Shown here in pieces: positions 29,651-63,098 of a stretch of 64,000 nucleotides of DNA. The notes under the pieces were generated by a model. The model saw only the letters and a list, made by a program, of their open reading frames with translations, was not told the origin of the DNA and searched no databases. Numbering within the stretch: the stretch's first letter is position 1; each line of letters opens with the position of its first letter. Location of the stretch: sequence record MW883059; one strand, 5' to 3'. This stretch comes from Escherichia phage vB_EcoM_SYGD1. Position numbers and translations under genes: made by a program.

Positions 29651-29723
29651 TGGGAATTAGCCAAGTTGGTAAGGCATAGCACTTTGACTGCTAGATGCAA
29701 AGGTTCGAGTCCTTTATTCCCAG
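29651..29723 (+). tRNA. tRNA-Gln (UUG)
   Basis: Manual fold: acceptor tgggaat/attccca, anticodon loop cttTGac, T-arm ggttcgagtcc. Confidence 0.8.
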
Positions 29724-29724
29724 C

Positions 29725-29811
29725 GCGAGAATGGTCAAATTGGTAAAGGCACAGCACTTAAAATGCTGCGGAATGATTTCCTTGTGGGTTCGAGTCCCAC
29801 TTCTCGTACCA
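29725..29811 (+). tRNA. tRNA-Leu (UAA)
   Basis: Manual fold: long variable arm, anticodon loop ctTAAaa, T-arm ggttcgagtcc, encoded CCA. Confidence 0.8.
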
Positions 29812-29817
29812 AAGTTT

Positions 29818-29889
<72 letters not shown>

Positions 29890-29901
29890 AAATTTAATTT
29901 A

Positions 29902-29975
29902 CTCCGTGTAGCTCAGTTTGGTAGAGCGTCTGCTTTGGGAGCAGAATGTCACAGGTTCAAATCCTGCCGCGGAGA
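29902..29975 (+). tRNA. tRNA-Pro (UGG)
   Basis: Manual fold: anticodon loop ttTGGga, T-arm ggttcaaatcc. Confidence 0.8.
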
Positions 29976-29977
29976 CT

Positions 29978-30064
29978 GGAGGCGTGGCAGAGTGGTTTAA
30001 TGCACCGGTCTTGAAAACCGGCAGTCGCTCCGGTGACTCATAGGTTCAAATCCTATCGCCTCCG
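29978..30064 (+). tRNA. tRNA-Ser (UGA)
   Basis: Manual fold: long variable arm, anticodon loop ctTGAaa, acceptor ggaggcg/cgcctcc. Confidence 0.8.
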
Positions 30065-30071
30065 TAATTTC

Positions 30072-30144
30072 GCTGATTTAGCTCAGTAGGTAGAGCACCT
30101 CACTTGTAATGAGGATGTCGGCGGTTCGATTCCGTCAATCAGCA
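30072..30144 (+). tRNA. tRNA-Thr (UGU)
   Basis: Manual fold: anticodon loop ctTGTaa, acceptor gctgatt/aatcagc. Confidence 0.8.
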
Positions 30145-30150
30145 TATCAA

Positions 30151-30222
30151 GGCCCTGTAGCTGGAAGGTTCAAGCAAGCGACTCATAATCGCCAGATGGT
30201 GGTTCAATTCCACCCAGGGCCA
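30151..30222 (+). tRNA. tRNA-Ile (CAU, lysidine type) or Met
   Basis: Manual fold: acceptor ggccctg/cagggcc, anticodon loop ctCATaa; T4 carries a CAU tRNA read as Ile. Confidence 0.7.
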
Positions 30223-30263
30223 TATTTTGGGAACATAAATACTCTTAGAAATAGGAGATATTT

Positions 30264-30929
30264 ATGTTCCATTACACTTATAAAATAACAAATAAAATTA
30301 ATAATAAAATCTATATAGGCGCTCATTCTACCGAAAATTTAGATGATGGATATATGGGTTCTGGTAAATTATTAAAAAGAGCCCAAGACAAGTATGGTAT
30401 AGAAAATTTCTCTAAAGAAATATTAGAGTTCTTTGACGATAAAACCTCTATGTTTGAGTCAGAAAAGAATATTGTGACTGAAGAGTTTTTAAAGCGCCCT
30501 GATGTTTATAATTTGAAATTAGGTGGTGAAGGTGGTTGGGACCATTTAAACACTAAAGAATATTTGGATAAAAAGAAAGAAGCTTCCTTAAAAGGGGCTG
30601 CTGCTTTTAAAACCAGATTTGAGAACGACCCAGACCTTAAAGAAAAATATCGTAAAATGGGTTCAGAAAGGTTTAAACAGCTTTGGGATAATCCTAAGTA
30701 TAGAGAGAAATTTTTAAATATTAAATCTTTATTGGGTAAGACCCATACTCCTGAAACTATTAATAAAATGAAAGAATCTCACGCCAGAAATAAACACCAA
30801 CAGGGCGAAAAGAATTCCCAATTTGGTATGATGTGGATTCATTCATTAGATGAAAAAGTTTCTAAACGTATTAAGAAAACTGACCCAATTCCAGAAGGAT
30901 GGTTTAAAGGTCGAAAAATGAAATTTTAA
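30264..30929 (+). CDS. segB: GIY-YIG homing endonuclease inside the tRNA cluster (SegB-like)
   Basis: 221 aa; N-terminal YTYKITNKINNKIYIGAHS...YMGSG; sits between tRNA-Ile and tRNA-Arg as segB does in T4. Confidence 0.75.
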   Translation: MFHYTYKITNKINNKIYIGAHSTENLDDGYMGSGKLLKRAQDKYGIENFSKEILEFFDDKTSMFESEKNIVTEEFLKRPDVYNLKLGGEGGWDHLNTKEYLDKKKEASLKGAAAFKTRFENDPDLKEKYRKMGSERFKQLWDNPKYREKFLNIKSLLGKTHTPETINKMKESHARNKHQQGEKNSQFGMMWIHSLDEKVSKRIKKTDPIPEGWFKGRKMKF

Positions 30930-30932
30930 TTA

Positions 30933-31009
<77 letters not shown>

Positions 31010-31330
31010 GACAAGAAACCGGGTCGCTACCGGTAAGTCGTCGGACTGATGTTCCCTGGGTAAGGAATTGCGTTAATAAATCTTTATGATTTGTTGATGC
31101 CCTCTTACACCACAGCAGAAACGGCGCACCGAATTATCGATTCGAGGAAATATCTTTGCCGTAAGCCGAGTAGCGTTTTTGACGGAACGTTCGGATATGG
31201 TCGAGATATGGCCTTTTAAAAATATTAAGTAGCGTCAACTGCTTAATAACCGGGTTCGAATCCCGGCGTTTCGTACAAACACTTGCCTTAGCAGGTGGAA
31301 CCCCGACAAGGTTGCCGCAAGGCTTTAGCC
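31010..31330 (+). ncRNA. Putative small stable RNAs (T4 species 1/2, rnaC/rnaD-like)
   Basis: Non-coding stretch after tRNA-Arg; tRNA-like T-arm ccgggttcgaatcccgg at 31249-31265; ends at rho-independent terminator; boundaries uncertain. Confidence 0.35.
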
Positions 31331-31355
31331 CCGACCGAAAGGTTGGGGCTTTTTG
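31327..31355 (+). terminator. Rho-independent terminator
   Basis: agccccgaccgaaaggttggggc followed by ttttt; near-identical copy at 31870-31898. Confidence 0.7.
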
Positions 31356-31356
31356 G

Positions 31357-31364
31357 TATAAATA
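31357..31364 (+). promoter_or_regulatory. Late promoter (TATAAATA)
   Basis: TATAAATA about 40 nt upstream of ORF 31404. Confidence 0.5.
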
Positions 31365-31403
31365 TAGTAGTATATTAAATCACGAATTAAAACAGGAAAT
31401 AAG

Positions 31404-31862
31404 ATGAAATCATATGCTCAATTTTTAAATGAAGCATCCGCTTCAGATGTTCGCGCTGTAGCAACTGCTGCTATTAAAGCTGGTAAATATTCTTATAAAG
31501 ATGCTTCTGACGAATCTCGGTACAAGTTCTACGACGATATGAGAGCTGAAGGCTTTGTGGGTAACTATGTTACCACCGCCTGGAAAAGCCTGGTTGCTAC
31601 TGGTGCGGCTTTCGAAAAACCTTCTGGTAAACCTGCTCCTAAGGCTGACCCTAAAGCAGCACAAGAAAAAAATATTGCTAAAGGAATTATTTCTAGGTAT
31701 GAAGCAATTCTTAAAGAACTTTTGGTAATTAAGACCGAAGGCCAGAAACTTGCGCGAGCTCATAGTTTCAAAGATAACCCACATGCTCATGACCTAGAGT
31801 ATGTTGAAGATCTCCAAAAAATCATCAAAGACCGCATTTGGTCTGCTAAACAAATTAAATAA
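31404..31862 (+). CDS. Internal protein-like, with capsid targeting sequence
   Basis: N-terminus MKSYAQFLNEA matches targeting-sequence pattern; 152 aa. Confidence 0.55.
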   Translation: MKSYAQFLNEASASDVRAVATAAIKAGKYSYKDASDESRYKFYDDMRAEGFVGNYVTTAWKSLVATGAAFEKPSGKPAPKADPKAAQEKNIAKGIISRYEAILKELLVIKTEGQKLARAHSFKDNPHAHDLEYVEDLQKIIKDRIWSAKQIK

Positions 31863-31869
31863 CATTCTT

Positions 31870-31898
31870 AGCCCCAGCCGAAAGGTTGGGGCTTTTGG
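31870..31898 (+). terminator. Rho-independent terminator (repeat of 31327 element)
   Basis: agccccagccgaaaggttggggc + tttt. Confidence 0.65.
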
Positions 31899-32030
31899 TA
31901 TCTAGGCCTTTCTGGACCTCTCTAGGCATCATTTAGTTTATACCCTTTATAATATATTATCCTATCCTTTAATTGCCCATCCCTGCCCTAGAATTCCCTA
32001 AAACTTTTTAAAAATTTTTTTCACAAAACG

Positions 32031-35041: not shown

Positions 35042-35572
<531 letters not shown>

Positions 35573-35632: not shown

Positions 35633-36049
35633 ATGACTCGTATTAATTTGACTTTAGTATCTGAACTTGCTGATCAACATTTAATCGCAGAATACCGTGA
35701 ACTGCCGCGTGTTTTTGGTATAGTTCGTAAACATGTTGCAAATGGTAAGCGGGTTAAAGATTTTAAAATATCTTCCGAGTTTATTTTAGGTTCTGGTCAT
35801 GTCACGTTCTTTTACGATAAGTTAGAATTTTTGCGAAAGCGTCAATCAGACATTATAACGGAATGCTTAAAACGCGGATTCAGTATAAAAGATACTGAAG
35901 TTCCTGACATCAGTGATATTCCAGTAGAATGGAAAAATGATTATAATCCATGCAAATCAGCTATTAGGTTGAGTCAACAACGACTCGATGAAAAAATTTT
36001 AATGAAGCCACACTGGTACAAGTATTACGGCAAAAATATTTACATTTAA
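35633..36049 (+). CDS. denV: Endonuclease V (pyrimidine dimer DNA glycosylase)
   Basis: 138 aa; N-terminal [17 protein letters not shown] as in T4 DenV. Confidence 0.9.
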
Positions 36050-36194
36050 ATAACATGGGAATAACCTGGACCTCATGATTCTATGAGGGATTCCCGCCAA
36101 CCTGTAATAAGGTCGAGCCCAAGTGCGGTAATGGGTAAATACAGAAATGGACAATTCATGCGCCACGGAATGGCCCAAATTTAGAGATAACAAA

Positions 36195-36734
36195 ATGAGA
36201 ACATTTTTAACTGGTCCTTATCTATCCCTGATGAATGCTTTTACACACCATTCTGATGCTAGAGTAGAAGAAATTTGTAAAAACGAATATATCCTGCCAT
36301 TTGAAGACTTACTTAAGCAGTATTGCACACTTCGACTAGATGGTGGACGTCAATCCGGTAAATCAATTGCAGTAACTAATTTTGCCGCTAATTGGTTGTA
36401 TGACGGTGGAACAGTTATTGTTCTTTCTAATACTTCAGCTTATGCTAAAATTTCTGCAGATAACATCAAAAAGGAATTTTCGCGTTATTCTAATGATGAT
36501 ATACGTTTTCGTTTATTTACTGATTCTGTGCGTAGTTTTATTGGTAATAAAGGAAGCAAGTTCAGAGGTTTATCTCTTTCGCGAATTTTATATATAATTG
36601 ATGAGCCTGTCAAATCTCCTGATATGGATAAGATTTATGATGCTCATATTGACACTGTACAGTACTGCTGCAATAGTAAATGTTGCATTGGTGGTATTAC
36701 TCGTCCTCAATTTTTTGTGATTGGAATGCAATGA
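36195..36734 (+). CDS. Hypothetical P-loop protein
   Basis: Walker A-like GGRQSGKS and Walker B-like LYIIDEP; ORF 36147-36734, start at Met 36195 assumed. Confidence 0.4.
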   Translation: MRTFLTGPYLSLMNAFTHHSDARVEEICKNEYILPFEDLLKQYCTLRLDGGRQSGKSIAVTNFAANWLYDGGTVIVLSNTSAYAKISADNIKKEFSRYSNDDIRFRLFTDSVRSFIGNKGSKFRGLSLSRILYIIDEPVKSPDMDKIYDAHIDTVQYCCNSKCCIGGITRPQFFVIGMQ

Positions 36735-37060: not shown

Positions 37061-37068
37061 GAGGTTAT

Positions 37069-37431
37069 ATGAAAGCATATCAAATTCTTGAAGGCACGCA
37101 TAAAGGTACTATTTATTTTGAAGACGGTATTCAAGCACGAATTATTGTCTCTAAAACCTTTAAAGAGGACTCTTTTGTAGACCCAGAAATTTTCTATGGT
37201 TTGCATGCCCGTGAAATTGAAATTGAAACACAACCTACAGTTAAAATTGAAGGTGGTCAACACCTGAACGTTAACGTTCTGCGTCGTGAAACTCTGGAAG
37301 ATGCAGTTAAGCATCCGGAAAAATATCCGCAGCTGACCATCCGTGTATCCGGTTATGCAGTTCGCTTTAACTCTCTGACTCCGGAACAGCAGCGCGACGT
37401 TATCGCTCGTACCTTTACCGAGAGTCTGTAA
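37069..37431 (+). CDS. Autonomous glycyl radical cofactor (GrcA/YfiD-like)
   Basis: C-terminal roughly 60 aa ([62 protein letters not shown]) match E. coli GrcA from memory, including glycyl radical motif RVSGYAV; host-like codon usage in this part. Confidence 0.8.
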
Positions 37432-37652
37432 TGGCAAAGATAATTATTGAAGGTTCTAAAGATGTGCTAAATGCTTTCGCCGAGTGGTTTAGTAATTCAG
37501 GCGAACAGCAATTTAATGAAGCGTGGAACATGGGTGATATTAGTGGAATTTATCCTACGACAGAAATTTCTGTTCAGGGATATGGCATTCATGAACCTAT
37601 TCGTTTAGTTGAATATGATTTATGTACTGGTGAGGAAGTAGAATATGATTGA
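37431..37652 (+). CDS. Hypothetical protein
   Basis: 73 aa ORF. Confidence 0.35.
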   Translation: MAKIIIEGSKDVLNAFAEWFSNSGEQQFNEAWNMGDISGIYPTTEISVQGYGIHEPIRLVEYDLCTGEEVEYD

Positions 37653-49871: not shown

Positions 49872-50399
49872 ATGAACGCTAAAGATATTTTCAACCTGGT
49901 AAATTACAATGATGGTAAATTTAAATCTGAAGCACAAAGCAAGTTCTTTAATGACATCTCAATCGGAGGTGAAATCACTGTTGATGGAGGACAAATTTAC
50001 AAATCGCGTTGGAATTGGATCGTTATTATTGATGAGATCGGTATTGTAGAAATTTACAAGAATACGAATAAAAATCGTACATTACATTGGTCTCGTGATA
50101 CTAACGAACAGTACAAAAAGGATAAAGCATCTAAATTATCTCGTGTAACTCAAGAAGATATTGAGTTCATCAAGAAAGATATTTTAATGTATGATAACTT
50201 AATTGCTGAAGAGCAAGCTGTTATTGATAAATTTGACGAGATTAAAGCTTCTCGTGAAATTCCTGATTTTATGAAAGAATCAGTAAATGAACGATACACT
50301 CTCATTTCAGAGCGTATTGAAACTTACAAAAAGCAAAGAGCTGAACGCCAAAATACTCTTCGGAAGTTTGAAGAACGGTTAAAGACGGTACTCGCATAA
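49872..50399 (+). CDS. Hypothetical protein
   Basis: 175 aa. Confidence 0.4.
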   Translation: MNAKDIFNLVNYNDGKFKSEAQSKFFNDISIGGEITVDGGQIYKSRWNWIVIIDEIGIVEIYKNTNKNRTLHWSRDTNEQYKKDKASKLSRVTQEDIEFIKKDILMYDNLIAEEQAVIDKFDEIKASREIPDFMKESVNERYTLISERIETYKKQRAERQNTLRKFEERLKTVLA

Positions 50400-50454
50400 C
50401 TGCTTTATACCAAGGATGGTATAATGGTTCTAAGCCCTTTTAATTGAGATTATT

Positions 50455-50862
50455 ATGAAACAGTTGATAATTAAAAGATTGAATTTATTGATATGTTGTT
50501 TATGTATAGTAATTGCATATGGTTATTATGCTATTAATGATTATATGCATTATAAAGATTATGATGTTACTGTAGTTAATACCCTTACAGGAACTCAAGG
50601 AAAGGGGTCTAGTTTATCGTTTATTGCTGTATATGAACTAAATGACGGTTATAGATTTAGTGAATATATTTCCCCGGAGATGTATTCTTCAATAGAAAAA
50701 GGTGATAATATTACTGTAAGTTTACGTCCTTTCGACGTAAAACAGACACTGTTTGATAATATTGTTTGGTTCTTTGGAATGGTATTAGTTCAATCTGTGT
50801 GTGGTGCTTATATAGTCTGTTCCATCTTATTCTGTATATTTAGTAAAATTGAAATTGAGTGA
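50455..50862 (+). CDS. Hypothetical membrane protein
   Basis: 135 aa; hydrophobic N- and C-terminal segments. Confidence 0.4.
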   Translation: MKQLIIKRLNLLICCLCIVIAYGYYAINDYMHYKDYDVTVVNTLTGTQGKGSSLSFIAVYELNDGYRFSEYISPEMYSSIEKGDNITVSLRPFDVKQTLFDNIVWFFGMVLVQSVCGAYIVCSILFCIFSKIEIE

Positions 50863-50869
50863 GGAAAAT

Positions 50870-51760
50870 ATGTCAGTAGTAATTAATAATGTCAATGCAG
50901 TAATTAAATCTTTAGTTAATAAAAAAATGATGAATGAATGGACTGTATTTCGTCGTGGAGAGCCAGATAAATTTTTTCATAGATTTAACCCAACTTTGGA
51001 TTTGAATGTTATCGACAGAGATGTTCATGCTGAAATTTTAGATAAGTTTAAAGTTGATATTGGATTTGGATTAGAAAAACATTTGCAGCGAACAACCGGG
51101 TCTGGAATGAGTTTATCTAATCGCATTATGAAAGCCCTTAATAAAATTGGAGCGTTGTCTCGTATTAATGCAAGTGAAATTCTTCGTAATTACAATAAAG
51201 GATATGACCTTTATGGTCGACTGATGCCAAAATTATCATTCGATCAAATGATTGCGGATTTGTGGGAAAATCAACGCCGATTATTAGCATTGGGCGCTCG
51301 ATTAGCTAAAGGTCTAGATAAACAAATGATTTTTAAGACCAATAATACAGAAGACCTTAAATGCTTTAAATTTAGTATTCGTGGAGATGATTATTACATC
51401 AGAGCTCACTCTACAGATTATGTTAATATGGGGCATCATCTCTGTTTAGCTTTTGAAGTTTTAAAAGAAGCTGGAACATTAGAATATACGTCTGGTGCTA
51501 AATGCCCGATTGGTTCAAATTGCATTTTGATTTATCGCCCGAATGAATCCAGTTCAACTACATTGCCTACAAAACCTGTACCAGTTCGTAGTAACGAAAA
51601 ACATTCTGAACAAATTGATTATTTTAATAAGCAGATTGAAGAGCTGAATATTTCTATTCAACAGTATGATGATGAAATTTTCAGACTATCTGGATTGAGT
51701 AGTAAAGCTAAATCTGAGCGTGAAAAGTTAATTAAAATCGTTGATTTACTTAAATCTTAA
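50870..51760 (+). CDS. Hypothetical protein with C-terminal coiled coil
   Basis: ORF 50849-51760; ATG 50870 after SD gaggaaaa. Confidence 0.45.
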   Translation: MSVVINNVNAVIKSLVNKKMMNEWTVFRRGEPDKFFHRFNPTLDLNVIDRDVHAEILDKFKVDIGFGLEKHLQRTTGSGMSLSNRIMKALNKIGALSRINASEILRNYNKGYDLYGRLMPKLSFDQMIADLWENQRRLLALGARLAKGLDKQMIFKTNNTEDLKCFKFSIRGDDYYIRAHSTDYVNMGHHLCLAFEVLKEAGTLEYTSGAKCPIGSNCILIYRPNESSSTTLPTKPVPVRSNEKHSEQIDYFNKQIEELNISIQQYDDEIFRLSGLSSKAKSEREKLIKIVDLLKS

Positions 51761-51768
51761 GGAATACC

Positions 51769-52698
51769 ATGAAAACTCGTAAACAATATATTGATTATTT
51801 TGACAGTCTTATTACTAAACACCGTAATTATCAAATCGGGCACAGAGCAGTAATCAATAATATTCTTCGTGATTTCCTTCAATATGTTGGCCAGGAAAAT
51901 CATATCTGTAAAGATACACAGAACGCTTATTCTCATTCGTTAGGCAATTTGCTTCAATGGTTTAAACGTTCTCGTCTGTTATCTTCTACTGTAGCTAGTG
52001 ATAACATTAAAAACTTTATGAAGCCGAGCTTCATTAAATCTGCGACATCTATAACCGATTTGGTTGAATTTACTATTGTTAACGATGTTAAAAAGACCCA
52101 TTTGGCTGATTGGTTATCTACCATTCCTGAAACTAAATTTGCTGATAAATTTGCTTATCAATTCAATGACCAAGTGAATATGCTTTTTAAGCATGCTCGT
52201 AAACTATTTACCGCGGGCGATGACCGTACAAATACAGTTCATGTTAAGGATTGGGTTATTGCTGATGAAGTAACACACAAGCCGGGTGGTTCATCAGTAT
52301 TAATTAATATCCAGGTTCCTTATTACTACTCACGTAATCTCGGCACCATGACAGCTAGAGAAATTAATAAGCATAACAAAACTATTCGTTCGTTGTCTTA
52401 TAAACTCTGCACGATGGTGGAGATGATGGACGTAGTGGAAATGTATGATGAAACCGAAGATAATAGTTCAATGTTATACAGTTCACGTATTCTAATTAAA
52501 CTGAAGAACCCTAATACATATAAGCCAGCTGTAAAAGAACCTAAAGCAGAAAAGGTTGATAACCTGAACGAAGAACGTGAATATCTCAATGCTCGTTTGA
52601 TTGAAGTTGAAGCCCAGATTGCCGAACACACCAAATTGTTAAAAGCTCTTAATGCAAAAGCAAATGGTTTACGTAATGCTATTGAGGTATTGAAATGA
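51769..52698 (+). CDS. Hypothetical protein with C-terminal coiled coil
   Basis: 309 aa; same domain layout as preceding ORF. Confidence 0.45.
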
Positions 52699-53243
52699 AA
52701 AAGCGTCTATTAGAAGATATTGCAGCTTCAAGTAATTCCAGTCTAATTAAAATCATTATGGCTGGTGAAGAAGACGATTTAGAAATGCGTGGAAAGATTC
52801 ATGGTTGTGACGATTTAGATTTTAAACCTCCAGCGTGGGATGCCATTATGGTTATGGTTGAACGTCGCGAAAGGGCTTCTAAGATTGTTCCGAACTGCCC
52901 AAAATGTGGTACTGAACAGGTCCAATTGATTAACTGGCGTAAACCAGAGCTTGAATATAAATGTCGTCATTGCAAACACCGATTTGAGAGAGAGAAGAAA
53001 ATGGCCAAGCGTAAAGAATATATGGAGATTGCTGAAAAAGCAGTCCGTGAATTAGCAATAGCTTATTATAATGAACATGGTAAATTTCCTGATAGATACA
53101 GCGTGCTTAAATCTGCTTTAACTCGTTCATATAAAAATATGCTATCAGAAGTAAGTGATATTATATACAAACATAAAGAACAAACGGGCCAAAGTCTTGA
53201 TTATGACGAGACTTTTAAACAAGTACTAGGAATTAAGGAATAA
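52695..53243 (+). CDS. Hypothetical zinc-ribbon protein
   Basis: CPKCGTEQ...CRHCKH four-Cys ribbon. Confidence 0.4.
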
Positions 53244-53244
53244 T

Positions 53245-53508
53245 ATGTTTAAAGTATATGGTTATGATAGCAGCATCCATAAATGTGTGTATTGCGATAA
53301 TGCAAAACGTCTTTTGACTGTAAAGAAACAGCCGTTTGAATTTATCAACATTATGCCGGAAAAAGGTGTTTTTGATGATGAGAAAATCGCTGAGCTTCTG
53401 ACTAAACTAGGTCGTGATACTCAAATTGGTTTGACGATGCCACAAGTATTTGCTCCCGATGGAAGTCATATTGGTGGATTTGATCAATTGCGGGAATACT
53501 TTAAATGA
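53245..53508 (+). CDS. nrdC: Glutaredoxin (T4 thioredoxin) NrdC
   Basis: 87 aa; CVYC active site; matches T4 NrdC from memory. Confidence 0.85.
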   Translation: MFKVYGYDSSIHKCVYCDNAKRLLTVKKQPFEFINIMPEKGVFDDEKIAELLTKLGRDTQIGLTMPQVFAPDGSHIGGFDQLREYFK

Positions 53509-53720
53509 TGCTCGAAGGAACTGATTATATCCATGACTATCGCGGAAGCGCGGTATATGTAGGTGATGAGGTTGCAGTTTATTATGGGTATGGAACTTTG
53601 ATGACAGCAAAGGTTATTCAAATTAAAAATGGCCGCGCTAAACTCGAAGTTTATTATTCTAACGGCGAAAAGTCTATTTCTAAATGGAAATATGGCGATT
53701 GTATGGTCAAACTGGGGTAA
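53505..53720 (+). CDS. Hypothetical protein
   Basis: 71 aa. Confidence 0.35.
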   Translation: MMLEGTDYIHDYRGSAVYVGDEVAVYYGYGTLMTAKVIQIKNGRAKLEVYYSNGEKSISKWKYGDCMVKLG

Positions 53721-53722
53721 AT

Positions 53723-53893
53723 ATGATTTACGATATTAGTGTATCAAGAACTCCGTCAATGGTTACTATTCCAGCCGAAGAATTAGATCGTCTTCAGAAA
53801 ATTGAAGAGCTTCTTTGGGAAATTGAATCTGATTTGCCATCAGGACTAGAATCCTGGATTGATTATGAAGAACTTAATAAATTGCGAAATTAA
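53723..53893 (+). CDS. Hypothetical protein
   Basis: ORF 53684-53893; start at MIYDISV assumed. Confidence 0.3.
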   Translation: MIYDISVSRTPSMVTIPAEELDRLQKIEELLWEIESDLPSGLESWIDYEELNKLRN

Positions 53894-53903
53894 TTGGTGA
53901 CAA

Positions 53904-54224
53904 ATGACTATTGAAAATAAATTTGATGTTGATGCAGTTCTGAGTGAAATCATCGAAGACCATGATGCATTTTCAGAAAACTATGATTTCGATTTTTCCG
54001 ATTATCTTAAACCTATCGAAATAGAAGATTGGGTACAAGACGGTAAATGCCAATATCGCCAGTGTGTTTATTTTAGTCCAAAACATAACGTTCATGTGTC
54101 TGTAAATGAATCTCGCTCAGGTTCTTACCATTCTGACTGGTATTATGCAGTTCCGACTGTTGAACTAGTCGAGCCCCGTGAACGTGTAGTAACTCAGACA
54201 ATACGAGAATGGATTACGCTATAA
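53904..54224 (+). CDS. Hypothetical protein
   Basis: 106 aa. Confidence 0.35.
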   Translation: MTIENKFDVDAVLSEIIEDHDAFSENYDFDFSDYLKPIEIEDWVQDGKCQYRQCVYFSPKHNVHVSVNESRSGSYHSDWYYAVPTVELVEPRERVVTQTIREWITL

Positions 54225-54347
54225 AACCTTGGTGGGCGGCTAGATGGGAAACAGTAGAGCCAGAGCCGGAAGAACCGGTTTACACTGATGAAGAAACAGT
54301 ATATAATGAACCTACAATAAATGACATAATTGATATGGAGATGGGAC

Positions 54348-54833
54348 ATGATTACAGTAGATAAGTGGTTTAGAATTAATCGTGCTGATAAAGGGCTGTG
54401 TAATTACTGGCCGGAACTTAGTGCAGGTACTGTCTTTAAAGTTCGTGAACTTGCAAAAAAATGTGAAGATGATATAGAACCTGATACTGGAATTATTGAA
54501 ATTGAACTTTCTGACGGAAAGGTTATTAACATCTATGATAAGCCAATTACGTATTGGTGCTTATGGAATACTGAATCCGTTGAAAATGGCGAAATTGAAG
54601 AAGTTGTAGAGAGAACTAGTCAAGATGTTCAAATACCTAAAGCCGATTTTCAAGGTGAACGTATTTCATACGCATTAGCTAAATTAGCTGCACAAGAAAA
54701 TAACGATGGCTATGAAGGTAACCTGATGCAAGCTGCGGCAGAATATATTGAATGGCTTGAAACCCAAATTTCTTTTTCTGACCAAAAGATTCGGCAATAT
54801 AAGCGATTGAATCAAATGTTTTACAATACTTGA
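54348..54833 (+). CDS. Hypothetical protein (possibly Pin-like protease inhibitor by position)
   Basis: About 161 aa from Met 54348; located where T4 has pin next to gene 49; no motif support. Confidence 0.3.
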   Translation: MITVDKWFRINRADKGLCNYWPELSAGTVFKVRELAKKCEDDIEPDTGIIEIELSDGKVINIYDKPITYWCLWNTESVENGEIEEVVERTSQDVQIPKADFQGERISYALAKLAAQENNDGYEGNLMQAAAEYIEWLETQISFSDQKIRQYKRLNQMFYNT

Positions 54834-54875
54834 AAATAATAAATACCCTTATCTATTTAAGGTAAGGGTTTTATT

Positions 54876-55349
54876 ATGTTATTGACTGGCAAATTATACA
54901 AAGAAGAAAAACAGAAATTTTATGACGCACAAAACGGTAAATGCTTAATTTGCCAACGAGAACTAAATCCTGATGTTCAAGCTAATCACCTTGACCATGA
55001 CCATGAATTAAATGGACCAAAAGCAGGAAAGGTGCGTGGATTGCTCTGTAATCTCTGCAATGCAGCGGAAGGTCAAATGAAACACAAATTTAATCGTTCT
55101 GGCTTAAAAGGACAAGGCGTTGATTATCTTGAATGGTTAGAAAATTTACTTACTTATTTAAAATCCGATTACACCCAAAATAATATTCACCCTAACTTCG
55201 TTGGAGATAAATCAAAGGAATTTTCTCGTTTAGGAAAAGAGGAAATGATGGCTGAGATGCTTCAAAGAGGATTTGAATATAATGAATCTGACACTAAAAC
55301 ACAATTAATAGCTTCATTTAAGAAGCAGCTTAGAAAGAGTTTAAAATGA
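54876..55349 (+). CDS. 49: Endonuclease VII (Holliday junction resolvase)
   Basis: 157 aa; Cys pairs and HLDHDHELNG catalytic region. Confidence 0.85.
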   Translation: MLLTGKLYKEEKQKFYDAQNGKCLICQRELNPDVQANHLDHDHELNGPKAGKVRGLLCNLCNAAEGQMKHKFNRSGLKGQGVDYLEWLENLLTYLKSDYTQNNIHPNFVGDKSKEFSRLGKEEMMAEMLQRGFEYNESDTKTQLIASFKKQLRKSLK

Positions 55350-55864
55350 CAATTGAAAAAGAAATTGAAGGATTGATTCATAAAACTAATAAAGACCTTT
55401 TAAACGAGAATGCTAATAAAGATTCTCGTGTTTTTCCAACTCAACGGGACCTTATGGCTGGTATTGTGTCTAAACACATTGCCAAAAATATGGTCCCGTC
55501 TTTTATTATGAAAGCGCATGAAAGCGGAATTATTCATTTCCATGATATTGATTATTCCCCTGCTCTTCCATTTACTAATTGCTGTTTAGTAGATTTAAAA
55601 GGAATGCTTGAGAACGGGTTTAAGCTTGGTAATGCACAGATTGAAACCCCTAAATCAATTGGCGTTGCTACTGCAATTATGGCACAAATTACTGCACAGG
55701 TTGCTTCCCATCAATATGGCGGAACGACTTTTGCGAATGTAGATAAAGTACTTTCTCCTTATGTTAAACGCACCTATGCGAAACATATTGAGGACGCGGA
55801 AAAATGGCAAATCGCAGATGCATTGAATTATGCCCAATCTAAAACAGAAAAAGATGTCTATGAC
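55346..55864 (+). CDS. nrdD: Anaerobic ribonucleotide reductase NrdD, exon 1 (3' boundary approximate)
   Basis: Reading frame closes at 55891 inside the intron; exon end estimated, not determined. Confidence 0.6.
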
Positions 55865-56897
55865 GCGTTCCAGGCGTATGAGTTAATTTAATTCAGGCTC
55901 ATGTAAAACCGGTCTAAACGGGGAACCTCTCTAGTAGACAATCCCGTGCTAAATGTTCTTTTGAACTAAATGCCTAACGACTAACCGTGATGAATGTAGC
56001 GGTGTAGAATAGAAGCTAATGCTATTCGAAACGGCCGGCATCGAAAGATGAAGATATAGTCTAATCTGCATGGCGACATGCAGCAGTCATCTTGTATAAA
56101 TAAGATTATCTTATGAATACGAGGTGAAACAATGAAATGGATAAAAAGACGTTGTACTAAAATAAAAGATAAAGACGCATTTACATACTTAGTTAAGTTT
56201 TCTAATGGTGACATTTATATCGGTTATAAAAAATTTAGAACAATTAAAAACAAGCCCACAAACTGGAAAACTTACACAACGTCATCTAAGTATATAAATG
56301 AACGCTTAAAAACTGATACACCTACTAAATGGATAATTTTAAAAACATTTGATAGTTATAAAGATGCATTAAAACATGAAGAAGAGGTCATACGTAAATA
56401 TTTTTATAGCAAAAAATGTTTAAATAAATCCATAGGCGGTAAAAAGTTTTATAAGCATCCGGATACTGAAGAACATATTCAAAAATTAAGAGATGCTCAT
56501 AAGGGTAAAGTGTTATCCGAATCTCATAAAAACAATATAAAATCTTCTGTAGCTGAATATTATGCTAAAAACGGAAGATCTAAGGAACATGTGCAAAATA
56601 ATATCAATAGTCGAAAAAGTAAAAAACAAGTATCGATAAAGCTTAAAAATAAAACTTTTAGAAGTTTTAAAAAAGCAGCGGAATATTTAAATTGCACTGA
56701 AAGTGAAGTCGAAACTCATCCTCTTGTTTTGAGTATTAAGACTACTATTCATAAAGTTCCTGAATATGTGGTTGTTGACGGTATTAAGTATACGTCTTAT
56801 ATAGAAGCAGCTAAAGCGCTAAATTTTCATCCTAGCACTATAAAAGAACGTTGCATATCTATGGACTATCCAAATTTTGTTGTTTCATATAAACGGG
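55865..56897 (+). mobile_element. Group I self-splicing intron in nrdD carrying a homing endonuclease ORF (boundaries approximate)
   Basis: nrdD frame is interrupted by about 1 kb holding a free-standing GIY-YIG ORF, then resumes; T4 nrdD has a group I intron of similar size. Confidence 0.6.
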
Positions 56898-56902
56898 CAT
56901 GA
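56132..56902 (+). CDS. Intron-encoded GIY-YIG homing endonuclease (I-TevII-like)
   Basis: 256 aa; FTYLVKFSNGDIYIGYKK GIY-YIG motif; inside nrdD intron. Confidence 0.7.
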   Translation: MKWIKRRCTKIKDKDAFTYLVKFSNGDIYIGYKKFRTIKNKPTNWKTYTTSSKYINERLKTDTPTKWIILKTFDSYKDALKHEEEVIRKYFYSKKCLNKSIGGKKFYKHPDTEEHIQKLRDAHKGKVLSESHKNNIKSSVAEYYAKNGRSKEHVQNNINSRKSKKQVSIKLKNKTFRSFKKAAEYLNCTESEVETHPLVLSIKTTIHKVPEYVVVDGIKYTSYIEAAKALNFHPSTIKERCISMDYPNFVVSYKRA

Positions 56903-58208
56903 ATTTGCGACTCATGCTGAATATAATGATGAAGTAAATACACTTTTCAGCTCTAATGGACAAACGCCTTTTGTAACAATTACATTTGGTACGGGAACTG
57001 ACTGGACTGAACGAATGATTCAGAAAGCAATTCTGAAAAATCGTATTAAAGGTCTTGGTCGTGACGGGATAACTCCTATTTTCCCTAAACTTGTTATGTT
57101 CGTTGAAGAAGGTGTTAATCTTTATAAAGACGATCCGAACTATGATATTAAGCAGCTTGCTCTAGAGTGTGCAAGTAAAAGAATGTATCCTGACATCATT
57201 TCGGCTAAGAACAATAAAGCTATTACCGGTTCATCTATTCCTGTTTCTCCAATGGGTTGTCGTAGTTTCTTGAGTGTATGGAAAGATTCGACTGGTAATG
57301 AAATTCTTGATGGACGTAATAATCTTGGTGTTGTAACACTGAATCTTCCTCGTATTGCGTTAGATTCTTATATTGGAACACAGTTCAATGAACAGAAATT
57401 TGCCGAATTGTTCAATGAACGAATGGATTTATGTTTTGAAGCTTTGATGTGTAGAATCAGTTCCTTAAAAGGAGTTAAAGCGACTGTTGCTCCTATTCTT
57501 TATCAAGAAGGTGCATTCGGGGTTCGTCTTAAACCTGATGACGATATAATTGAGTTATTTAAAAACGGTAGAAGTTCAGTGTCCTTAGGATACATTGGTA
57601 TTCACGAATTGAATATTCTTGTCGGTCGTGATATTGGACAAGAAATTTTAACTAAAATGAATGCTCATCTTAAGCAGTGGACTGAAAGAACCGGTTTTGC
57701 TTTTAGCTTGTATTCTACTCCTGCGGAAAACCTGTGCTATCGCTTCTGTAAACTTGATACCGAAAAATATGGAAGTGTAAAGGATGTTACTGATAAAGGC
57801 TGGTACACTAATAGTTTCCATGTTTCAGTAGAAGAAAATATTACTCCGTTTGAAAAGATTTCTCGCGAAGCCCCATATCATTTCATTGCGACAGGTGGTC
57901 ACATTTCTTATGTTGAACTTCCTGATATGAAAAATAACCTAAAAGGTCTTGAGGCTGTATGGGATTATGCTGCACAACATTTAGATTATTTTGGTGTTAA
58001 TATGCCAGTAGATAAATGTTTTACGTGTGGAAGTACCCATGAAATGACTCCAACTGAAAACGGATTTGTTTGTTCTATTTGTGGAGAAACTGATCCTAAA
58101 AAGATGAACACAATAAGAAGAACATGCGGATATCTTGGAACTCCTAGCGTTGTTCCATGGAATTTAGGTAAAATGAAAGAAATGGTAAAACGAGTAAAAC
58201 ATGCATAG
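56898..58208 (+). CDS. nrdD: Anaerobic ribonucleotide reductase NrdD, exon 2 (5' boundary approximate)
   Basis: Zn ribbon CFTCGSTHEMTPTENGFVCSICGE and glycyl radical motif RRTCGYLG near C-terminus. Confidence 0.8.
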   Translation, partial: HEFATHAEYNDEVNTLFSSNGQTPFVTITFGTGTDWTERMIQKAILKNRIKGLGRDGITPIFPKLVMFVEEGVNLYKDDPNYDIKQLALECASKRMYPDIISAKNNKAITGSSIPVSPMGCRSFLSVWKDSTGNEILDGRNNLGVVTLNLPRIALDSYIGTQFNEQKFAELFNERMDLCFEALMCRISSLKGVKATVAPILYQEGAFGVRLKPDDDIIELFKNGRSSVSLGYIGIHELNILVGRDIGQEILTKMNAHLKQWTERTGFAFSLYSTPAENLCYRFCKLDTEKYGSVKDVTDKGWYTNSFHVSVEENITPFEKISREAPYHFIATGGHISYVELPDMKNNLKGLEAVWDYAAQHLDYFGVNMPVDKCFTCGSTHEMTPTENGFVCSICGETDPKKMNTIRRTCGYLGTPSVVPWNLGKMKEMVKRVKHA

Positions 58209-59031
58209 GTATTATATAATTTATAAAATAACAAATATAATTAATTCAAAGGAATATATCGGTGCGCATAGCACCGATAACATAAATGACGGTTATATGG
58301 GGTCAGGAACATTGATTCGTGCCGCTTTATTAAAATATGGTAGAAAAAATTTTAATAAAGAAATTTTACATGTTTTTGATAATGAAAAACAAATGTATGA
58401 TAAAGAAGCTGAACTTGTAACCGAAGAGTATTGTCTAAAAGAAAATACATATAATATTAAACCTGGTGGAAAAGGTGGAACTGCCTATGAACAGACACTT
58501 GAACATCGCCGCAAAAATAGTTTAGCAAATAAAGGTAAAAAGAGAACAGAAGAAACTAAAATAGCTATTTCACGTGCTTTAAAGAAATATAAACGTACGC
58601 CAGAGCATCAAGCAAATTTAAATAAAGCCGTAAGCATAGCTATGAAGCGAAAAGATGTTAGAAGTAAATTAGCTGGAGAGCGGTCTGAGAAAGATAAATT
58701 ATCTATATCAAACGGTGTTAAAAAATATTACAATTCTTTGAGTGAAGAAGAACGCGAACTTCATCGCAAGCGAATTATTGAAGGTAAAAAGAATTCTCCC
58801 ATGTCATTGGAATCTAGACAAAAGCTTTCAAAAGCTTTAAAAGGACTTCAAGTTGGTTCAAAAAATCCAATGTATGGAAAAATTTCTCCAACTAGCAAAA
58901 CCGTTTCAGTTGACGGTATTAAATATGATTCAATTAAAAAGTGCTCAAATGCCATAAAAGTTTCTAGACATCTTATACTAAAACGCTGTAATTCTACTGA
59001 TGAAGCTTGGAAAAATTGGATATTATTATGA
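58201..59031 (+). CDS. GIY-YIG homing endonuclease (seg-like) between nrdD and nrdG
   Basis: YYIIYKITNIINSKEYIGAHS...YMGSG; resembles the segB-like ORF at 30264. Confidence 0.7.
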   Translation: MHRYYIIYKITNIINSKEYIGAHSTDNINDGYMGSGTLIRAALLKYGRKNFNKEILHVFDNEKQMYDKEAELVTEEYCLKENTYNIKPGGKGGTAYEQTLEHRRKNSLANKGKKRTEETKIAISRALKKYKRTPEHQANLNKAVSIAMKRKDVRSKLAGERSEKDKLSISNGVKKYYNSLSEEERELHRKRIIEGKKNSPMSLESRQKLSKALKGLQVGSKNPMYGKISPTSKTVSVDGIKYDSIKKCSNAIKVSRHLILKRCNSTDEAWKNWILL

Positions 59032-59498
59032 ATTATGACAGAATATACCCGTGCTGCTTTGTTAATGGTCCTGGATGCAGGACAGTTCTTTTCGTTACAG
59101 GTTGTTTGCATAAATGCGAAGGGTGTTATAATAAATCAACATGGAATGCTAGAAATGGCGTTCCATTCACTGGTGAAACACTAGAACAATTAATTGAATG
59201 TTTGAATAATGATTATATAGAAGGATTAACTATAACTGGAGGAGACCCTCTTTATCCTGATAACCGAGATGATGTTCATTGCATTGTTCAAACGGTAAAA
59301 AATCTTTATCCAAATAAAAGCATTTGGTTGTGGACAGGGTACAAGTTTGAAGATATTAAACAACTAGAAATGCTTAAATATGTTGATGTTATTATTGATG
59401 GGAAGTATGAGAAAAATCTTCCGACCAAAAAGCTGTGGCGGGGTTCAGATAATCAGCGACTTTGGTCAAATACCGATGGGGTGTGGAAACATGATTAA
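59028..59498 (+). CDS. nrdG: Anaerobic RNR activating enzyme NrdG (radical SAM)
   Basis: CLHKCEGC radical-SAM cluster motif; 156 aa from MNYDRIY. Confidence 0.8.
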   Translation: MNYDRIYPCCFVNGPGCRTVLFVTGCLHKCEGCYNKSTWNARNGVPFTGETLEQLIECLNNDYIEGLTITGGDPLYPDNRDDVHCIVQTVKNLYPNKSIWLWTGYKFEDIKQLEMLKYVDVIIDGKYEKNLPTKKLWRGSDNQRLWSNTDGVWKHD

Positions 59499-59612
59499 AC
59501 TGAATTATATTATTGATACTATAAATGATATGATTTTTCATTTTGGTCCAGAATTTTATTCGCAGTATAGTTTAGTACTTATCAATGCTTGGTTAATCAA
59601 TTAAGGGTAAAT

Positions 59613-59828
59613 ATGTATAAATTTCGTAAAGGTTTAGCTGATTTTCTTACAACTGTAACGTTCTTTTTGTTTATGGCAGTTGGTGCTATTTTTCTTATTC
59701 CTTTTATTGCTATATTTTTCGTGATTAGCTTAATTTCTCCAGAAAAAGGACTGTCTTCTAGCGAGTTCAATGAACGCCTGGATAAAATTACTAACAAACT
59801 GAATTCTGTTCTTGACAAAAAGGCTTAA
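59613..59828 (+). CDS. Small membrane protein, hypothetical
   Basis: ORF 59589-59828; start at MYKFRKG assumed. Confidence 0.35.
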   Translation: MYKFRKGLADFLTTVTFFLFMAVGAIFLIPFIAIFFVISLISPEKGLSSSEFNERLDKITNKLNSVLDKKA

Positions 59829-59830
59829 TT

Positions 59831-60142
59831 ATGATTAGTTTTGAGCGGTATGTGGTAGAGAGTTGGAAGGGTTTTGATATGTTCGGTAATGACTATTATT
59901 TCTATGAATGTAGTCTAAATCCTAGTTTTTGGGCTGGACGAGAACGAGAACTCGAAGAAATTAATAACCGTGCTGAATTGTTAGGTGAATTACCTACGGT
60001 TTATTTTACCTTTGATGCATCTGGATTTGTTATCCAGGTTTATTTTCCTGAAGAAAATTCTGGCGATGATTCTGTTAACCCGCCATACTGGGCTTATCAA
60101 GGAATTATTTCTCGTGGAACAAAACTCGAACTTAAAGAATAA
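59831..60142 (+). CDS. Hypothetical protein
   Basis: 103 aa. Confidence 0.4.
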   Translation: MISFERYVVESWKGFDMFGNDYYFYECSLNPSFWAGRERELEEINNRAELLGELPTVYFTFDASGFVIQVYFPEENSGDDSVNPPYWAYQGIISRGTKLELKE

Positions 60143-60143
60143 G

Positions 60144-60437
60144 ATTGAAGTCTATGGAATTCCAGATGAAGTAGGTCGTTGTCCTGGATGTCAATCAGTT
60201 ACAAAACTTCTAAAGGAGCTCAATGCTCCTTTTACTTTCTATAAAGTTCTTACAAATAATGGTAAGATTGAGTATGATCGTCCACTGATTGTATCTCTTG
60301 CTAAACGCGCTGGATTCACATCTCTTAACATTCGTTATCCAGTCATTTTCATCAATGATTCTAGACAAAAGAACATTAAACACTTCAAAGAAACTCTCAT
60401 TTCACTTGGATATGATAGAGATATCATAGAAGACTAA
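60144..60437 (+). CDS. Glutaredoxin/thioredoxin-fold protein (NrdH-like); start codon uncertain
   Basis: KIEVYGIPDEVGRCPGCQSVTKLLKEL has the beta-strand, CxxC, helix layout of glutaredoxins; no in-frame ATG near the fold start (ATT at 60144). Confidence 0.45.
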   Translation: MEVYGIPDEVGRCPGCQSVTKLLKELNAPFTFYKVLTNNGKIEYDRPLIVSLAKRAGFTSLNIRYPVIFINDSRQKNIKHFKETLISLGYDRDIIED

Positions 60438-60439
60438 GA

Positions 60440-60465
60440 CAGGCCCTCTGGGCCTTTCTTTCTCG
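60440..60465 (+). terminator. Rho-independent terminator
   Basis: aggccctctgggcct followed by T-rich run. Confidence 0.6.
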
Positions 60466-60534
60466 CATTCTGTATATTACCATTCTAAGCTATCGTTCCC
60501 TTCTTATCGTTCACTAAAATAATTTCACAAAGTT

Positions 60535-60564
60535 GTTTACAAGAAGTTCAAACTGTGGTATTAT
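60535..60564 (+). promoter_or_regulatory. T4-type early promoter
   Basis: tttcacaaagttGTTTAC ... tggtattat. Confidence 0.55.
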
Positions 60565-60763
60565 TAACATATGAATTGCCTTTGAGGATTTGATATGGTT
60601 GATAAAGAGATTAAAAAGGATCAGTATTATCGTGTTAACGGACATATTGTTATTGTTACAGCAGTAGATGATCTAGATGTTCATTATACTGTACTTAAAT
60701 GGAATAAACAGATGATTTGTGATCGTGCTGTATTTAGTTCAGTTGCTAAGGAAATTAAACTCC

Positions 60764-61057
60764 ATGGGTAAAACGTATCGTCGTAAAGACTTGAAAGTTC
60801 GTGATTATGACTATTTCGGAAAGCGTAAAGCTCCTGATGGTGTAAGTCATAAAGATATGGTTGAAAACATTTTTCGCTCTGATAAATGGCGTAGAATGAA
60901 AGGTATTGATTCAGAAGTTAAAGATGAGTTAAATCGTCAATTACGCGGTGAAGTAAGAAAGTTGAAAAAATCAGTTTACATTGACGATGATTTTGATTAT
61001 AATACTTCTCAACGAGTTGCTAAACGTAAATCAAACGAGTGTTATCGTTACAGCTGA
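60764..61057 (+). CDS. Hypothetical basic protein
   Basis: ORF 60719-61057; start at MGKTYRRK assumed. Confidence 0.35.
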   Translation: MGKTYRRKDLKVRDYDYFGKRKAPDGVSHKDMVENIFRSDKWRRMKGIDSEVKDELNRQLRGEVRKLKKSVYIDDDFDYNTSQRVAKRKSNECYRYS

Positions 61058-61196
61058 GGAAAATATGAATATCAAACGAATGCTTTTTAAGCAGGGGTTA
61101 TACACTTTAAATGTTACTCCAAAAGGCGATACAACTAAGTGGTCAGTAAATGACTGGATTAAATTTATTGATGAAAATGGTAATTGGGAAATTTAA

Positions 61197-61397
61197 ATGA
61201 ATCCTGAATCTAAATTATCACAACGAATTGCCGAATCTCGTCGTCAGTTCTTTGAAAATATGATAGCCCAAGGTATTGATGATGAAGTTTTTCTAAACTG
61301 GTTTTGGAATCACAAATATTCAAGTTGCTCAGGAGCAATATTAATATCAGCCGCAATGATGTACGAAGGCTGGAAGGGTGCCAAAAAGTTTAGCTAA
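61197..61397 (+). CDS. Hypothetical protein
   Basis: 66 aa; followed by terminator gggcttcggccc + ttttt (61398-61414). Confidence 0.35.
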   Translation: MNPESKLSQRIAESRRQFFENMIAQGIDDEVFLNWFWNHKYSSCSGAILISAAMMYEGWKGAKKFS

Positions 61398-61449
61398 GGG
61401 CTTCGGCCCTTTTTGGATAATAAAATTTTAACGTAATTGAGGATAATGT

Positions 61450-61776
61450 ATGACTATTCAAATTAAAAACGTCATTAATTCTTACGCATATGATAAAGTA
61501 TTTTCTTTGCTAGAAAAAGGCGATATTGTAACTCCTCAAATTTTGGATAAATGGGAAAAAGAGCTTCATCAGATGATGAAACAGAATGATCAGAAGATTG
61601 GACGAAATACTATCCGTGAATTGTTGGTTCAATATATCTTGTCAGAATTTGATGTTAAAGCTTTTGGCGTAGAATCTAAAGCTTATCAAAAGCATGAAAT
61701 TTCTGATAAAACTATTCGTCATATGAAAAATCAACGCAAGAAAAAATTTGCTGACTTGAAAATTGCTAAGGTATGA
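61450..61776 (+). CDS. Hypothetical protein
   Basis: 108 aa. Confidence 0.4.
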   Translation: MTIQIKNVINSYAYDKVFSLLEKGDIVTPQILDKWEKELHQMMKQNDQKIGRNTIRELLVQYILSEFDVKAFGVESKAYQKHEISDKTIRHMKNQRKKKFADLKIAKV

Positions 61777-61994
61777 ATATGAATGAAGCTCTTATTAACG
61801 ATTTGCGTCTTGCCGGATATGAAGTAAATACAAATGGCATTGGTTTAACTCAAATTGAAGGAAACGGATTCATCCTTGAGTATGAATTTAGCCAATGGTG
61901 GTTATATGCTAACTATGGCGAATTAATTGAATATGTCGATCAATTTGATTCACTAGATGCAGCTCTTGAAGCGGCTAAGTTGATGAATGTATGA
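61773..61994 (+). CDS. Hypothetical protein
   Basis: 73 aa. Confidence 0.35.
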   Translation: MNMNEALINDLRLAGYEVNTNGIGLTQIEGNGFILEYEFSQWWLYANYGELIEYVDQFDSLDAALEAAKLMNV

Positions 61995-62260: not shown

Positions 62261-62338
62261 CTGATATCCTCTATGCTTTAAGATAGATCTTCAAATATTA
62301 TGATATAATAGATCTATGAATTGAGCTAAGAGGTGAAA

Positions 62339-62896: not shown

Positions 62897-63098
62897 CCTC
62901 TCCGGATTCTTGGAAGAAATACCTGAAGTTGAAGCTATTCCCTATTTACTTAAAATGTATCTCAGGGAAGTTTTAGCTCTTGACATTGATATTGATCCAG
63001 AAAATCCGTATGATACCGCTTTTAAATCTAATGGTGTAGAATTAAACTATCGGTATCATTTAACAGATGATGATTTTTATTTTATATTAGAGAAATAA
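62880..63098 (+). CDS. Hypothetical protein
   Basis: 72 aa. Confidence 0.35.

Follow-up and report, generated by a model that had tools for sequence, protein, structure and literature searches.

A host-identical segment inside vs.6, the grcA-like gene of T-even phages

The vs.6 locus and its product

The DNA analysed here, referred to as the window, is a stretch of 64,000 nucleotides of Escherichia phage vB_EcoM_SYGD1 (sequence record MW883059). It contains an open reading frame that is the ortholog of T4 vs.6 (Table 1). The two genes are 97.8% identical in nucleotide sequence and share 118 of 120 residues, the T4 protein differing by T54P and R73H, and the T2 copy is 98.6% identical at the DNA level. 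A Shine-Dalgarno sequence, GAGG, is found at 37061-37064, ahead of the ATG. As in T4, the gene is located between vs.7 and vs.5 and has denV, vs.8, vs.4 and regB as its other neighbors, and the gene order of the region (e lysozyme, denV, vs.8, vs.7, the vs.6 ortholog, vs.5, vs.4, vs.3, regB) is collinear with that of the T-even phages. Across 2.5 kb, the vs.6 region is 96-98% identical to many Tequatrovirus genomes. A promoter and terminator scan around the gene gave a number of sites no higher than that in shuffled sequence, and the Rfam search of the window returned only a tRNA cluster (eight genes on the + strand, 29651-31006).

Table 1. Features of the vs.6 locus in the window
Feature	Position	Strand	Details and basis
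GrcA-like gene, T4 vs.6 ortholog	37069..37431	+	120 aa; ORF list, T4 comparison, Pfam and PDB matches
Phage-type N-terminal half	37069..37246	+	residues 1-59 and first base of codon 60; GC 0.33, GC3 0.20
Host-identical tract, glycyl-radical domain coding	37247..37418	+	172 nt, 100% identical to E. coli grcA; gapless comparison
Predicted glycyl radical site Gly95, GGT codon	37351..37353	+	RVSGYAV; motif alignment to 6owr and 1h16
Phage-type 3' end	37419..37431	+	third base of ACC, then GAG AGT CTG TAA; three synonymous sites off host
vs.5 homolog	37431..37652	+	start codon overlaps vs.6 stop (TAATG, 37429-37433); ORF list, T4/T2 annotation

Some differences from T4 are present further upstream. 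Here, only 60 nt separate the e lysozyme gene (35078-35572) from denV (35633-36049). In T4, the internal-protein gene ipII is directly upstream of denV, and we take the T4 map to have both ipII and ipIII between e and denV. Both appear to be absent from this position in the window phage. The vs.8 region (36050-36734) also differs: its ORF starts at 36147 and encodes 195 amino acids, whereas the T4 ORF starts right after denV and encodes 219. The stretch ahead of the vs.8 ORF, at about 36060-36180, is relatively GC-rich (GC up to 0.49) and AT-skewed, and vs.8 is annotated as fragments in the T2 record. The vs.8 gene may thus be disrupted or remodelled in the window phage.

The product of the vs.6 ortholog belongs to the GrcA family. 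It matches the Pfam Gly_radical domain (PF01228) with 67.2 bits against a cut-off of 22.2 and the structure of E. coli YfiD (PDB 6owr) with an E-value of 4.6e-42, the phmmer alignment to that structure covering residues 22-120 of the phage protein. The motif RVSGYAV occupies residues 92-98, and its Gly95 is equivalent to G102 of GrcA and G734 of pyruvate formate-lyase (PFL). The protein has the size of a stand-alone GrcA (about 120-130 residues ending in a glycyl radical domain with RVSGYAV) and, like other members of the family, has a homologous N-terminal half beyond the PFL-like domain. The NCBIfam spare_glycyl profile TIGR04365 aligns with residues 20-120 at positions 25-126. Its score of 154.6 bits is below the 170-bit equivalog cut-off because the N-terminal half has diverged. 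A comparison of profiles built from the N-terminal halves alone (seven T4-like phage sequences versus nine bacterial GrcA sequences, hhalign) aligns phage residues 18-60 with GrcA residues 24-67 at a probability of 95.4%, an E-value of 2e-8 and 33% identity. Judged by these profiles, the N-terminal halves of the phage protein and of GrcA are homologous but have diverged, and the gene as a whole is a grcA homolog and not a fusion with an unrelated ORF. The preliminary description of this DNA had called the N-terminal half phage-like. This is correct for its composition, but the half has a GrcA ancestry.

T4 has only one ORF of the GrcA-like type. Its size is right for the T4 protein Y06I of about 14 kDa, which we take to be the product of vs.6, partly on the basis of its UniProt name. 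The gene and its biochemical role are, hence, already known from T4. Nolan et al. (2006) reported the Gly_radical domain match of vs.6 and counted the gene among those T4 ORFs that are conserved in T4-like genomes (PMC1524935). According to Wagner et al. (2001), as cited in PMC8683613, both Y06I and E. coli YfiD/GrcA are activated by the PFL-activating enzyme (PFL-AE) and restore activity to PFL that has been cleaved by oxygen, in agreement with the earlier suggestion that a T4 ORF of this type is a spare part for damaged PFL. The first 60 residues of YfiD are disordered and contribute to binding and activation, and residues 61-127 form the structured domain that substitutes for PFL residues 693-759 (PMC8683613). 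The phage protein shares this organization with E. coli GrcA (PDB 6OWR), a disordered N-terminal half joined to a glycyl-radical domain that mimics PFL 693-759. However, its N-terminal half is only about 33% identical and seven residues shorter, and its gene is part of an early-gene cluster and is translationally coupled to vs.5.

The biochemical proof of the spare-part role was obtained with the T4 protein, and with high confidence, by orthology to it, the 98%-identical protein described here would likewise be a spare glycyl-radical domain that is activated by the host PFL-AE and rescues oxygen-cleaved host PFL. After infection, host PFL cleaved by oxygen at Gly734 would bind the 14-kDa phage protein, the host PFL-AE would place the radical on Gly95, and the complex would recover pyruvate formate-lyase activity. 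The fermentative supply of acetyl-CoA and ATP would thereby be sustained during host gene shut-off.

A host-identical tract within one reading frame

The preliminary description proposed that about 60 C-terminal residues are those of E. coli GrcA, RVSGYAV included. This is indeed the case: residues 61-120 are identical to GrcA residues 68-127. At the nucleotide level, 37247-37431 matches grcA in all 5,426 complete E. coli genomes with an identity of 95-99% (98.4% for the best alleles, blastn). The mismatches all lie past the host-identical tract, at 37419, 37422 and 37425 only, and are synonymous; the terminal CTGTAA is again identical. The identity was earlier thought to extend over about 37255-37431. 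The accompanying switch in GC content and codon usage is real, but the proposed start was 8 nt too far in the 3' direction and the last four sense codons are of the phage type.

The exact match over 172 nt exceeds what the conservation of the protein can explain. We compared synonymous sites within an identical peptide of 56 residues by the Nei-Gojobori method. None of the 42 synonymous sites of the tract differs from E. coli grcA (dS = 0). The grcA genes of Citrobacter and Trabulsiella, which encode the same peptide, differ from the tract at 13 of the 42 sites (dS 0.40), and phage Margaery, again with the same peptide, at 24 of them (dS 1.1). With a proportion of synonymous differences of 0.31, the probability of finding none in 42 is about 2e-7. 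The lack of any synonymous change in the tract also suggests that the recombination was recent.

The match is unique within the window. When the whole 64 kb was compared to the 5,426 E. coli genomes with megablast, the tract was the sole consistent match. Segments 1-25000 and 50001-64000 gave zero matches in the E. coli collection, and the top match of segment 25001-50000 in every genome was the tract. Among the weaker blastn matches of the phage gene in E. coli genomes, at least one is to pflB (80%).

The composition of the gene is not uniform. The GC content is 0.500 in the tract versus 0.333 in the N-terminal half, and GC3 is 0.429 versus 0.200. The GC3 of the tract is the same as that of E. 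coli at the same codons (0.43), and the N-terminal half of E. coli grcA itself has a GC3 of 0.42. In nearby phage genes, GC3 is 0.23-0.33. Only 0.3% of all 168-nt windows across the 64 kb attain the GC content of the tract. Elsewhere in the window, GC is as high only at the tRNA cluster and in patches at about 9000-9800 and 30900-31900. The Leu, Arg and Pro codons of the tract are exclusively CTG (five), CGT (four), CGC (two) and CCG (three), whereas the N-terminal half has a single CGT and is devoid of CTG, CGC and CCG.

The MaxChi procedure places the 5' breakpoint at nucleotides 178-186 of the gene (37246-37254) with a MaxChi value of 47.9, which was reached in 0 out of 2000 permutations. 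T4 has the same 5' junction and the same host-identical tract. The junction corresponds to GrcA codons 67/68 and is located slightly inside the boundary of the structured domain.

At the other end of the tract, the final four sense codons are ACC GAG AGT CTG in the phage versus ACT GAA AGC CTG in the host. The phage-type codon states are also found in Mosigvirus and in phages Roth23 and Margaery, which lack the host tract. The host DNA thus forms a patch inside the gene: one ORF contains a segment of host identity with phage-type sequence on both sides, delimited by a supported breakpoint and a compositional switch. The codons at the 3' boundary vary between phages, T4 having ACT GAA AGT TTG (so that its host state extends two codons further in the 3' direction), locus L133 ACT GAG AGT CTG and locus L142 ACT GAG AGC TTG. 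The 3' end of vs.6 also harbors a Shine-Dalgarno-like element, GAGAG, six bases 5' of the overlapping vs.5 start, and in the record of phage 55 the ribosome-binding site of the downstream gene is annotated at the GAG codon. The homology between the phage and the host chromosome stops at the vs.6 stop codon and vs.5 start. This end of homology together with the vs.5 Shine-Dalgarno element would restrict the length of a conversion tract.

As the N-terminal halves are homologous, the event has to be described as a homologous replacement within an existing phage grcA and not as a capture that made a fusion. Of the chimera by recent host capture that was originally proposed, the mosaic structure, the host origin of the 3' half and the recent date hold true, but no new fusion gene was created.

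Distribution of the tract among phages

The mosaic is not private to the window phage. The T4 and T2 references and over 600 independent phage records contain it as an in-frame mosaic with identical junctions, and the host tract is found in T2, in T4 and in hundreds of genomes of the genera Tequatrovirus and Mosigvirus. Between these two genera, 10.5 of 37.7 synonymous sites differ in the N-terminal half (28%, dS 0.35) versus only 1-4 of 42 in the tract, and the tract in either genus is 0-1 synonymous substitutions away from the E. coli allele of today. Such unequal divergence supports the notion that the tract was homogenised after the two lineages had split.

Phage 55 has four private differences in the tract (AAT, CCA, TTG, CGT), all of which are GC-to-AT changes. 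We considered whether they had come from another E. coli donor allele. None of the 5,426 genomes carries them, and they are mutations on the phage side, as would be expected for amelioration after transfer.

Klebsiella phages of the genus Jiaodavirus carry a Klebsiella version of the tract. The N-terminal half of their homolog is 73% identical to that of the window, the 3' half has a GC content of 0.56, and the C-terminal domain has the variant LLDAVEHPEKY. The E. coli and Klebsiella tracts differ in just two residues (LEDAVKH versus LLDAVEH). A scan of genome contigs gave no Salmonella or Klebsiella grcA, and the Klebsiella gene was taken from metagenome contigs. A 41-nt string from the Jiaodavirus 3' half occurs exactly in 28 metagenome contigs, 24 of which are bacterial. 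These bacterial contigs are up to 620 kb long; 23 have a GC content of 0.53-0.58 and one, 1.1 kb long, of 0.47. The GrcA that they encode is identical to GRCA_KLEP7 of Klebsiella by exact look-up.

In an uncultured Jiaoda-like phage contig (L096, GC 0.40), the identity to this Klebsiella grcA is 100% for about 156 nt, from GAA GGC (E61, the GAA of EGGQHL) through ATC, after which the codons are of the phage type. Within the phage collection, 106 records match the Klebsiella tract at 95-99% identity, all from the same GAA codon onward, compared to 86-88% for the E. coli phages. The synonymous divergence between the window and Jiaodavirus tracts (dS 0.57-0.62) is close to that between E. coli and Klebsiella themselves (0.565), and the MaxChi breakpoint in Jiaodavirus is the same as in the window. 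The extent of the host state varies among Jiaodavirus genomes (Nispero, 15882). Phage AM_K5 (174 kb), a candidate for a second Klebsiella lineage, was rejected as it turned out to be a Jiaodavirus as well.

The presence of a Klebsiella-type tract in Klebsiella phages means that replacement of phage DNA by host DNA took place at least twice and tracks the host. We have good confidence in at least two independent events. The sequences thus point to a repeated, host-specific process, which in Jiaodavirus would have occurred independently with Klebsiella grcA as the donor.

We surveyed 92 IMG/VR loci and several isolates against a grcA panel of 82 species, from which many hosts are absent. Host-identical tracts were found solely in the Tequatrovirus/Mosigvirus type, with exact runs of 71-173 nt to E. 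coli (at least 125 nt in all but one contig), and in the Jiaodavirus type, with an exact run of 140 nt to Klebsiella. In T5-like, Kc304-like, Slopekvirus/Margaery-like, jumbo and other lineages, there was no host-identical tract, the identity to any grcA of the panel being 72-84% and the exact runs not exceeding 32 nt. Within the limits of a panel that lacks many hosts, host-tract replacement is apparently not general among the phage lineages that have the gene. The related phages Roth23 and Margaery show the appearance of vertical descent free of conversion, as judged by a dS of 1.03 in the tract that is similar to that in the N-terminal half (1.00).

Several other records deserve a comment. 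The vs.6 genes of Tequatroviruses isolated on Salmonella, Yersinia pseudotuberculosis and Hafnia (H46, H48 and H56) are 97-98% identical to that of the window, which implies an E. coli-type tract. This suggests either slow overwriting or that these phages usually replicate in E. coli or Shigella. Conversion of Morganella phage MP1 by Morganella grcA was rejected: the identity is 77.6% and there is no host-identical tract. In the IMG/VR copy of MP1 (L166), the C-terminal domain is PflB-like and not GrcA-like (VMNREMLLEAMEDPTKY ... TKEQQ), and the donor, if there was one, may have been pflB. An Enterobacter-type tract was not found in the phage collection with one Enterobacter grcA allele as the query. 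Both matches of at least 99% were confined to short terminal stretches, and megablast gave no match for the central 120 nt. Several further IMG/VR 'viral' contigs (L204-L212 and L128) have a bacterial GC content and contain either the 3' end of a bacterial pflB or a complete grcA of the Yersinia type. Rather than phage genes, these sequences probably represent host DNA, from mis-binned contigs or from contigs that flank a prophage.

Origin of the mosaic

The most probable explanation of these findings is that vs.6 encodes a phage GrcA spare part and is an old phage grcA, the domain segment of which has been replaced by the grcA of the infected host, repeatedly and in a host-specific manner. 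We have good confidence in the host origin of the tract and moderate confidence that the replacement is an ongoing, recurrent process. The ancestral gene would have been an old, AT-ameliorated grcA homolog, in which gene conversion or recombination between homologous sequences exchanged 37247-37418 for the corresponding segment of grcA on the chromosome of the infected bacterium. On the 5' side, the tract would be limited by the end of phage-host homology near the domain boundary, and on the 3' side it would end a few codons before the stop, where the homology ends and the vs.5 Shine-Dalgarno element is located. Between replacements, the tract would drift via GC-to-AT mutations. We infer that recombination, rather than another route, made the patch, and selection for compatibility with the host PFL and PFL-AE may help to fix it. 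The transfer would have been directed from host to phage, as the codon usage of the tract is continuous with that of the 5' half of the host gene and each phage group matches its own host genus.

A stronger version of this explanation is that the vs.6 tract is continually overwritten by the grcA of the current host, identity being favored for recognition by PFL-AE and for the fit to PFL. We regard this as possible, but somewhat doubtful. The E. coli-type tract in the Yersinia, Hafnia and Salmonella isolates shows that any overwriting is not fast relative to the isolation history, and two or three ancient-to-recent events combined with phage-phage exchange could fit the E. coli phage picture too. 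If continual overwriting does take place, the tract would be a running molecular record of the recent host species, and a gene of a virulent, host-DNA-degrading phage would be in concerted evolution with a chromosomal gene of its host.

The number of events could be as small as two, one capture per host type, if the captured segments then spread by phage-phage recombination among co-infecting T-even phages, with no continuing exchange with the host. T-even phages recombine freely, and such a spread is compatible with the shared 5' junction and the near-identical tract of all Tequatrovirus and Mosigvirus copies as well as with the retention of the E. coli version in the Yersinia, Hafnia and Salmonella isolates. 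However, the tract is only 0-1 synonymous differences away from E. coli in phages whose N-terminal halves differ at 28% of synonymous sites, several combinations of host and phage states exist at the 3' boundary codons, and the host-state extent varies in Jiaodavirus. Variable endpoints and low tract divergence are more easily accounted for by repeated events, and we consider the two-event history to be unlikely, although it deserves to be kept in mind.

A single ancient capture of the whole gene free of any recombination, with the 3' half held identical by protein, codon or mRNA constraint, is very improbable. The glycyl-radical domain is, indeed, extremely conserved as a protein in all bacteria and phages sampled, but the genes that encode the identical 56-residue peptide differ from the tract at 31% (bacteria) to 58% (Margaery) of synonymous sites. 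Nor does constraint explain why Klebsiella phages match Klebsiella rather than E. coli or why the breakpoint and the compositional switch are abrupt. A transfer in the opposite direction, from the phage to the 3' half of bacterial grcA, has a precedent in the two-way exchange of cyanophage psbA (PMC1484495), and yet it is even harder to sustain. The GC3 of the tract (0.43) resembles that of the host N-terminal half (0.42) and is unlike that of phage genes (0.20-0.33), the similarity of grcA genes to the tract follows bacterial relatedness within the panel used (Escherichia sp. 98.9%, Citrobacter 92.9%, Klebsiella about 87%), and grcA is found at the ung-grcA locus in all 5,426 E. coli genomes. 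Finally, the merging of host reads into a phage contig, for which nothing but the unusual composition speaks, can be dismissed, as the in-frame mosaic recurs in T4, T2 and the several hundred other records and has phage sequence on both flanks within the same ORF.

The closest described evolutionary analog of replacement by host grcA is the mosaicism of cyanophage psbA and psbD (Zeidner 2005; Sullivan 2006, PMC1484495), which display a patchy G+C content, intragenic breakpoints with statistical support, and segments that group with host sequences. In both systems, a host-derived metabolic gene of T4-like phages has undergone intragenic recombination between host and phage. Unlike in psbA/psbD, the vs.6 patch is a single domain-sized block that is 100% identical to the current host species, it resides in strictly virulent enterobacterial T-even phages, and the same junction has been reused with two host genera. 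Furthermore, psbA is exchanged both ways, whereas in vs.6 the exchange is observed only from host to phage.

The noteworthy part is, hence, the evolutionary pattern. A search for earlier descriptions of the nucleotide-level identity or of host tracking returned only biochemical papers and the 2006 domain annotation of vs.6 (PMC1524935). No account of host-tracking, domain-limited replacement in enterobacterial T-even phages was found in the searchable literature, and the identity between T4 and E. coli may be mentioned in the 2003 T4 genome review. According to the T4 literature, T-even phages degrade host DNA. The usual description of these virulent phages is that they have almost no sequence in common with the host, and it is unexpected that they keep one block identical to it base for base. 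The locus offers a clean and experimentally accessible case of host-to-phage gene conversion, in which junctions, donors and drift can be read, and the tract may indicate the host species in which a T-even phage has recently replicated. The pattern also leads to the hypothesis that the structured domain must match the host and the disordered N-terminal half is free to diverge.

One minor observation concerns the two related phages without host-identical DNA. Klebsiella phage Roth23 (L087) has LLDAVEH, as does Klebsiella, and Citrobacter phage Margaery (L088) has LEDAVKH, as do Citrobacter and E. coli, so that the positions at which these two phages differ are precisely those that are host-specific in the domain. 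Near the host-specific codons, Roth23 has GCG GTT, which it shares with Klebsiella-like hosts. This residue pattern could result from selection for host matching or from an ancient conversion of a short patch.
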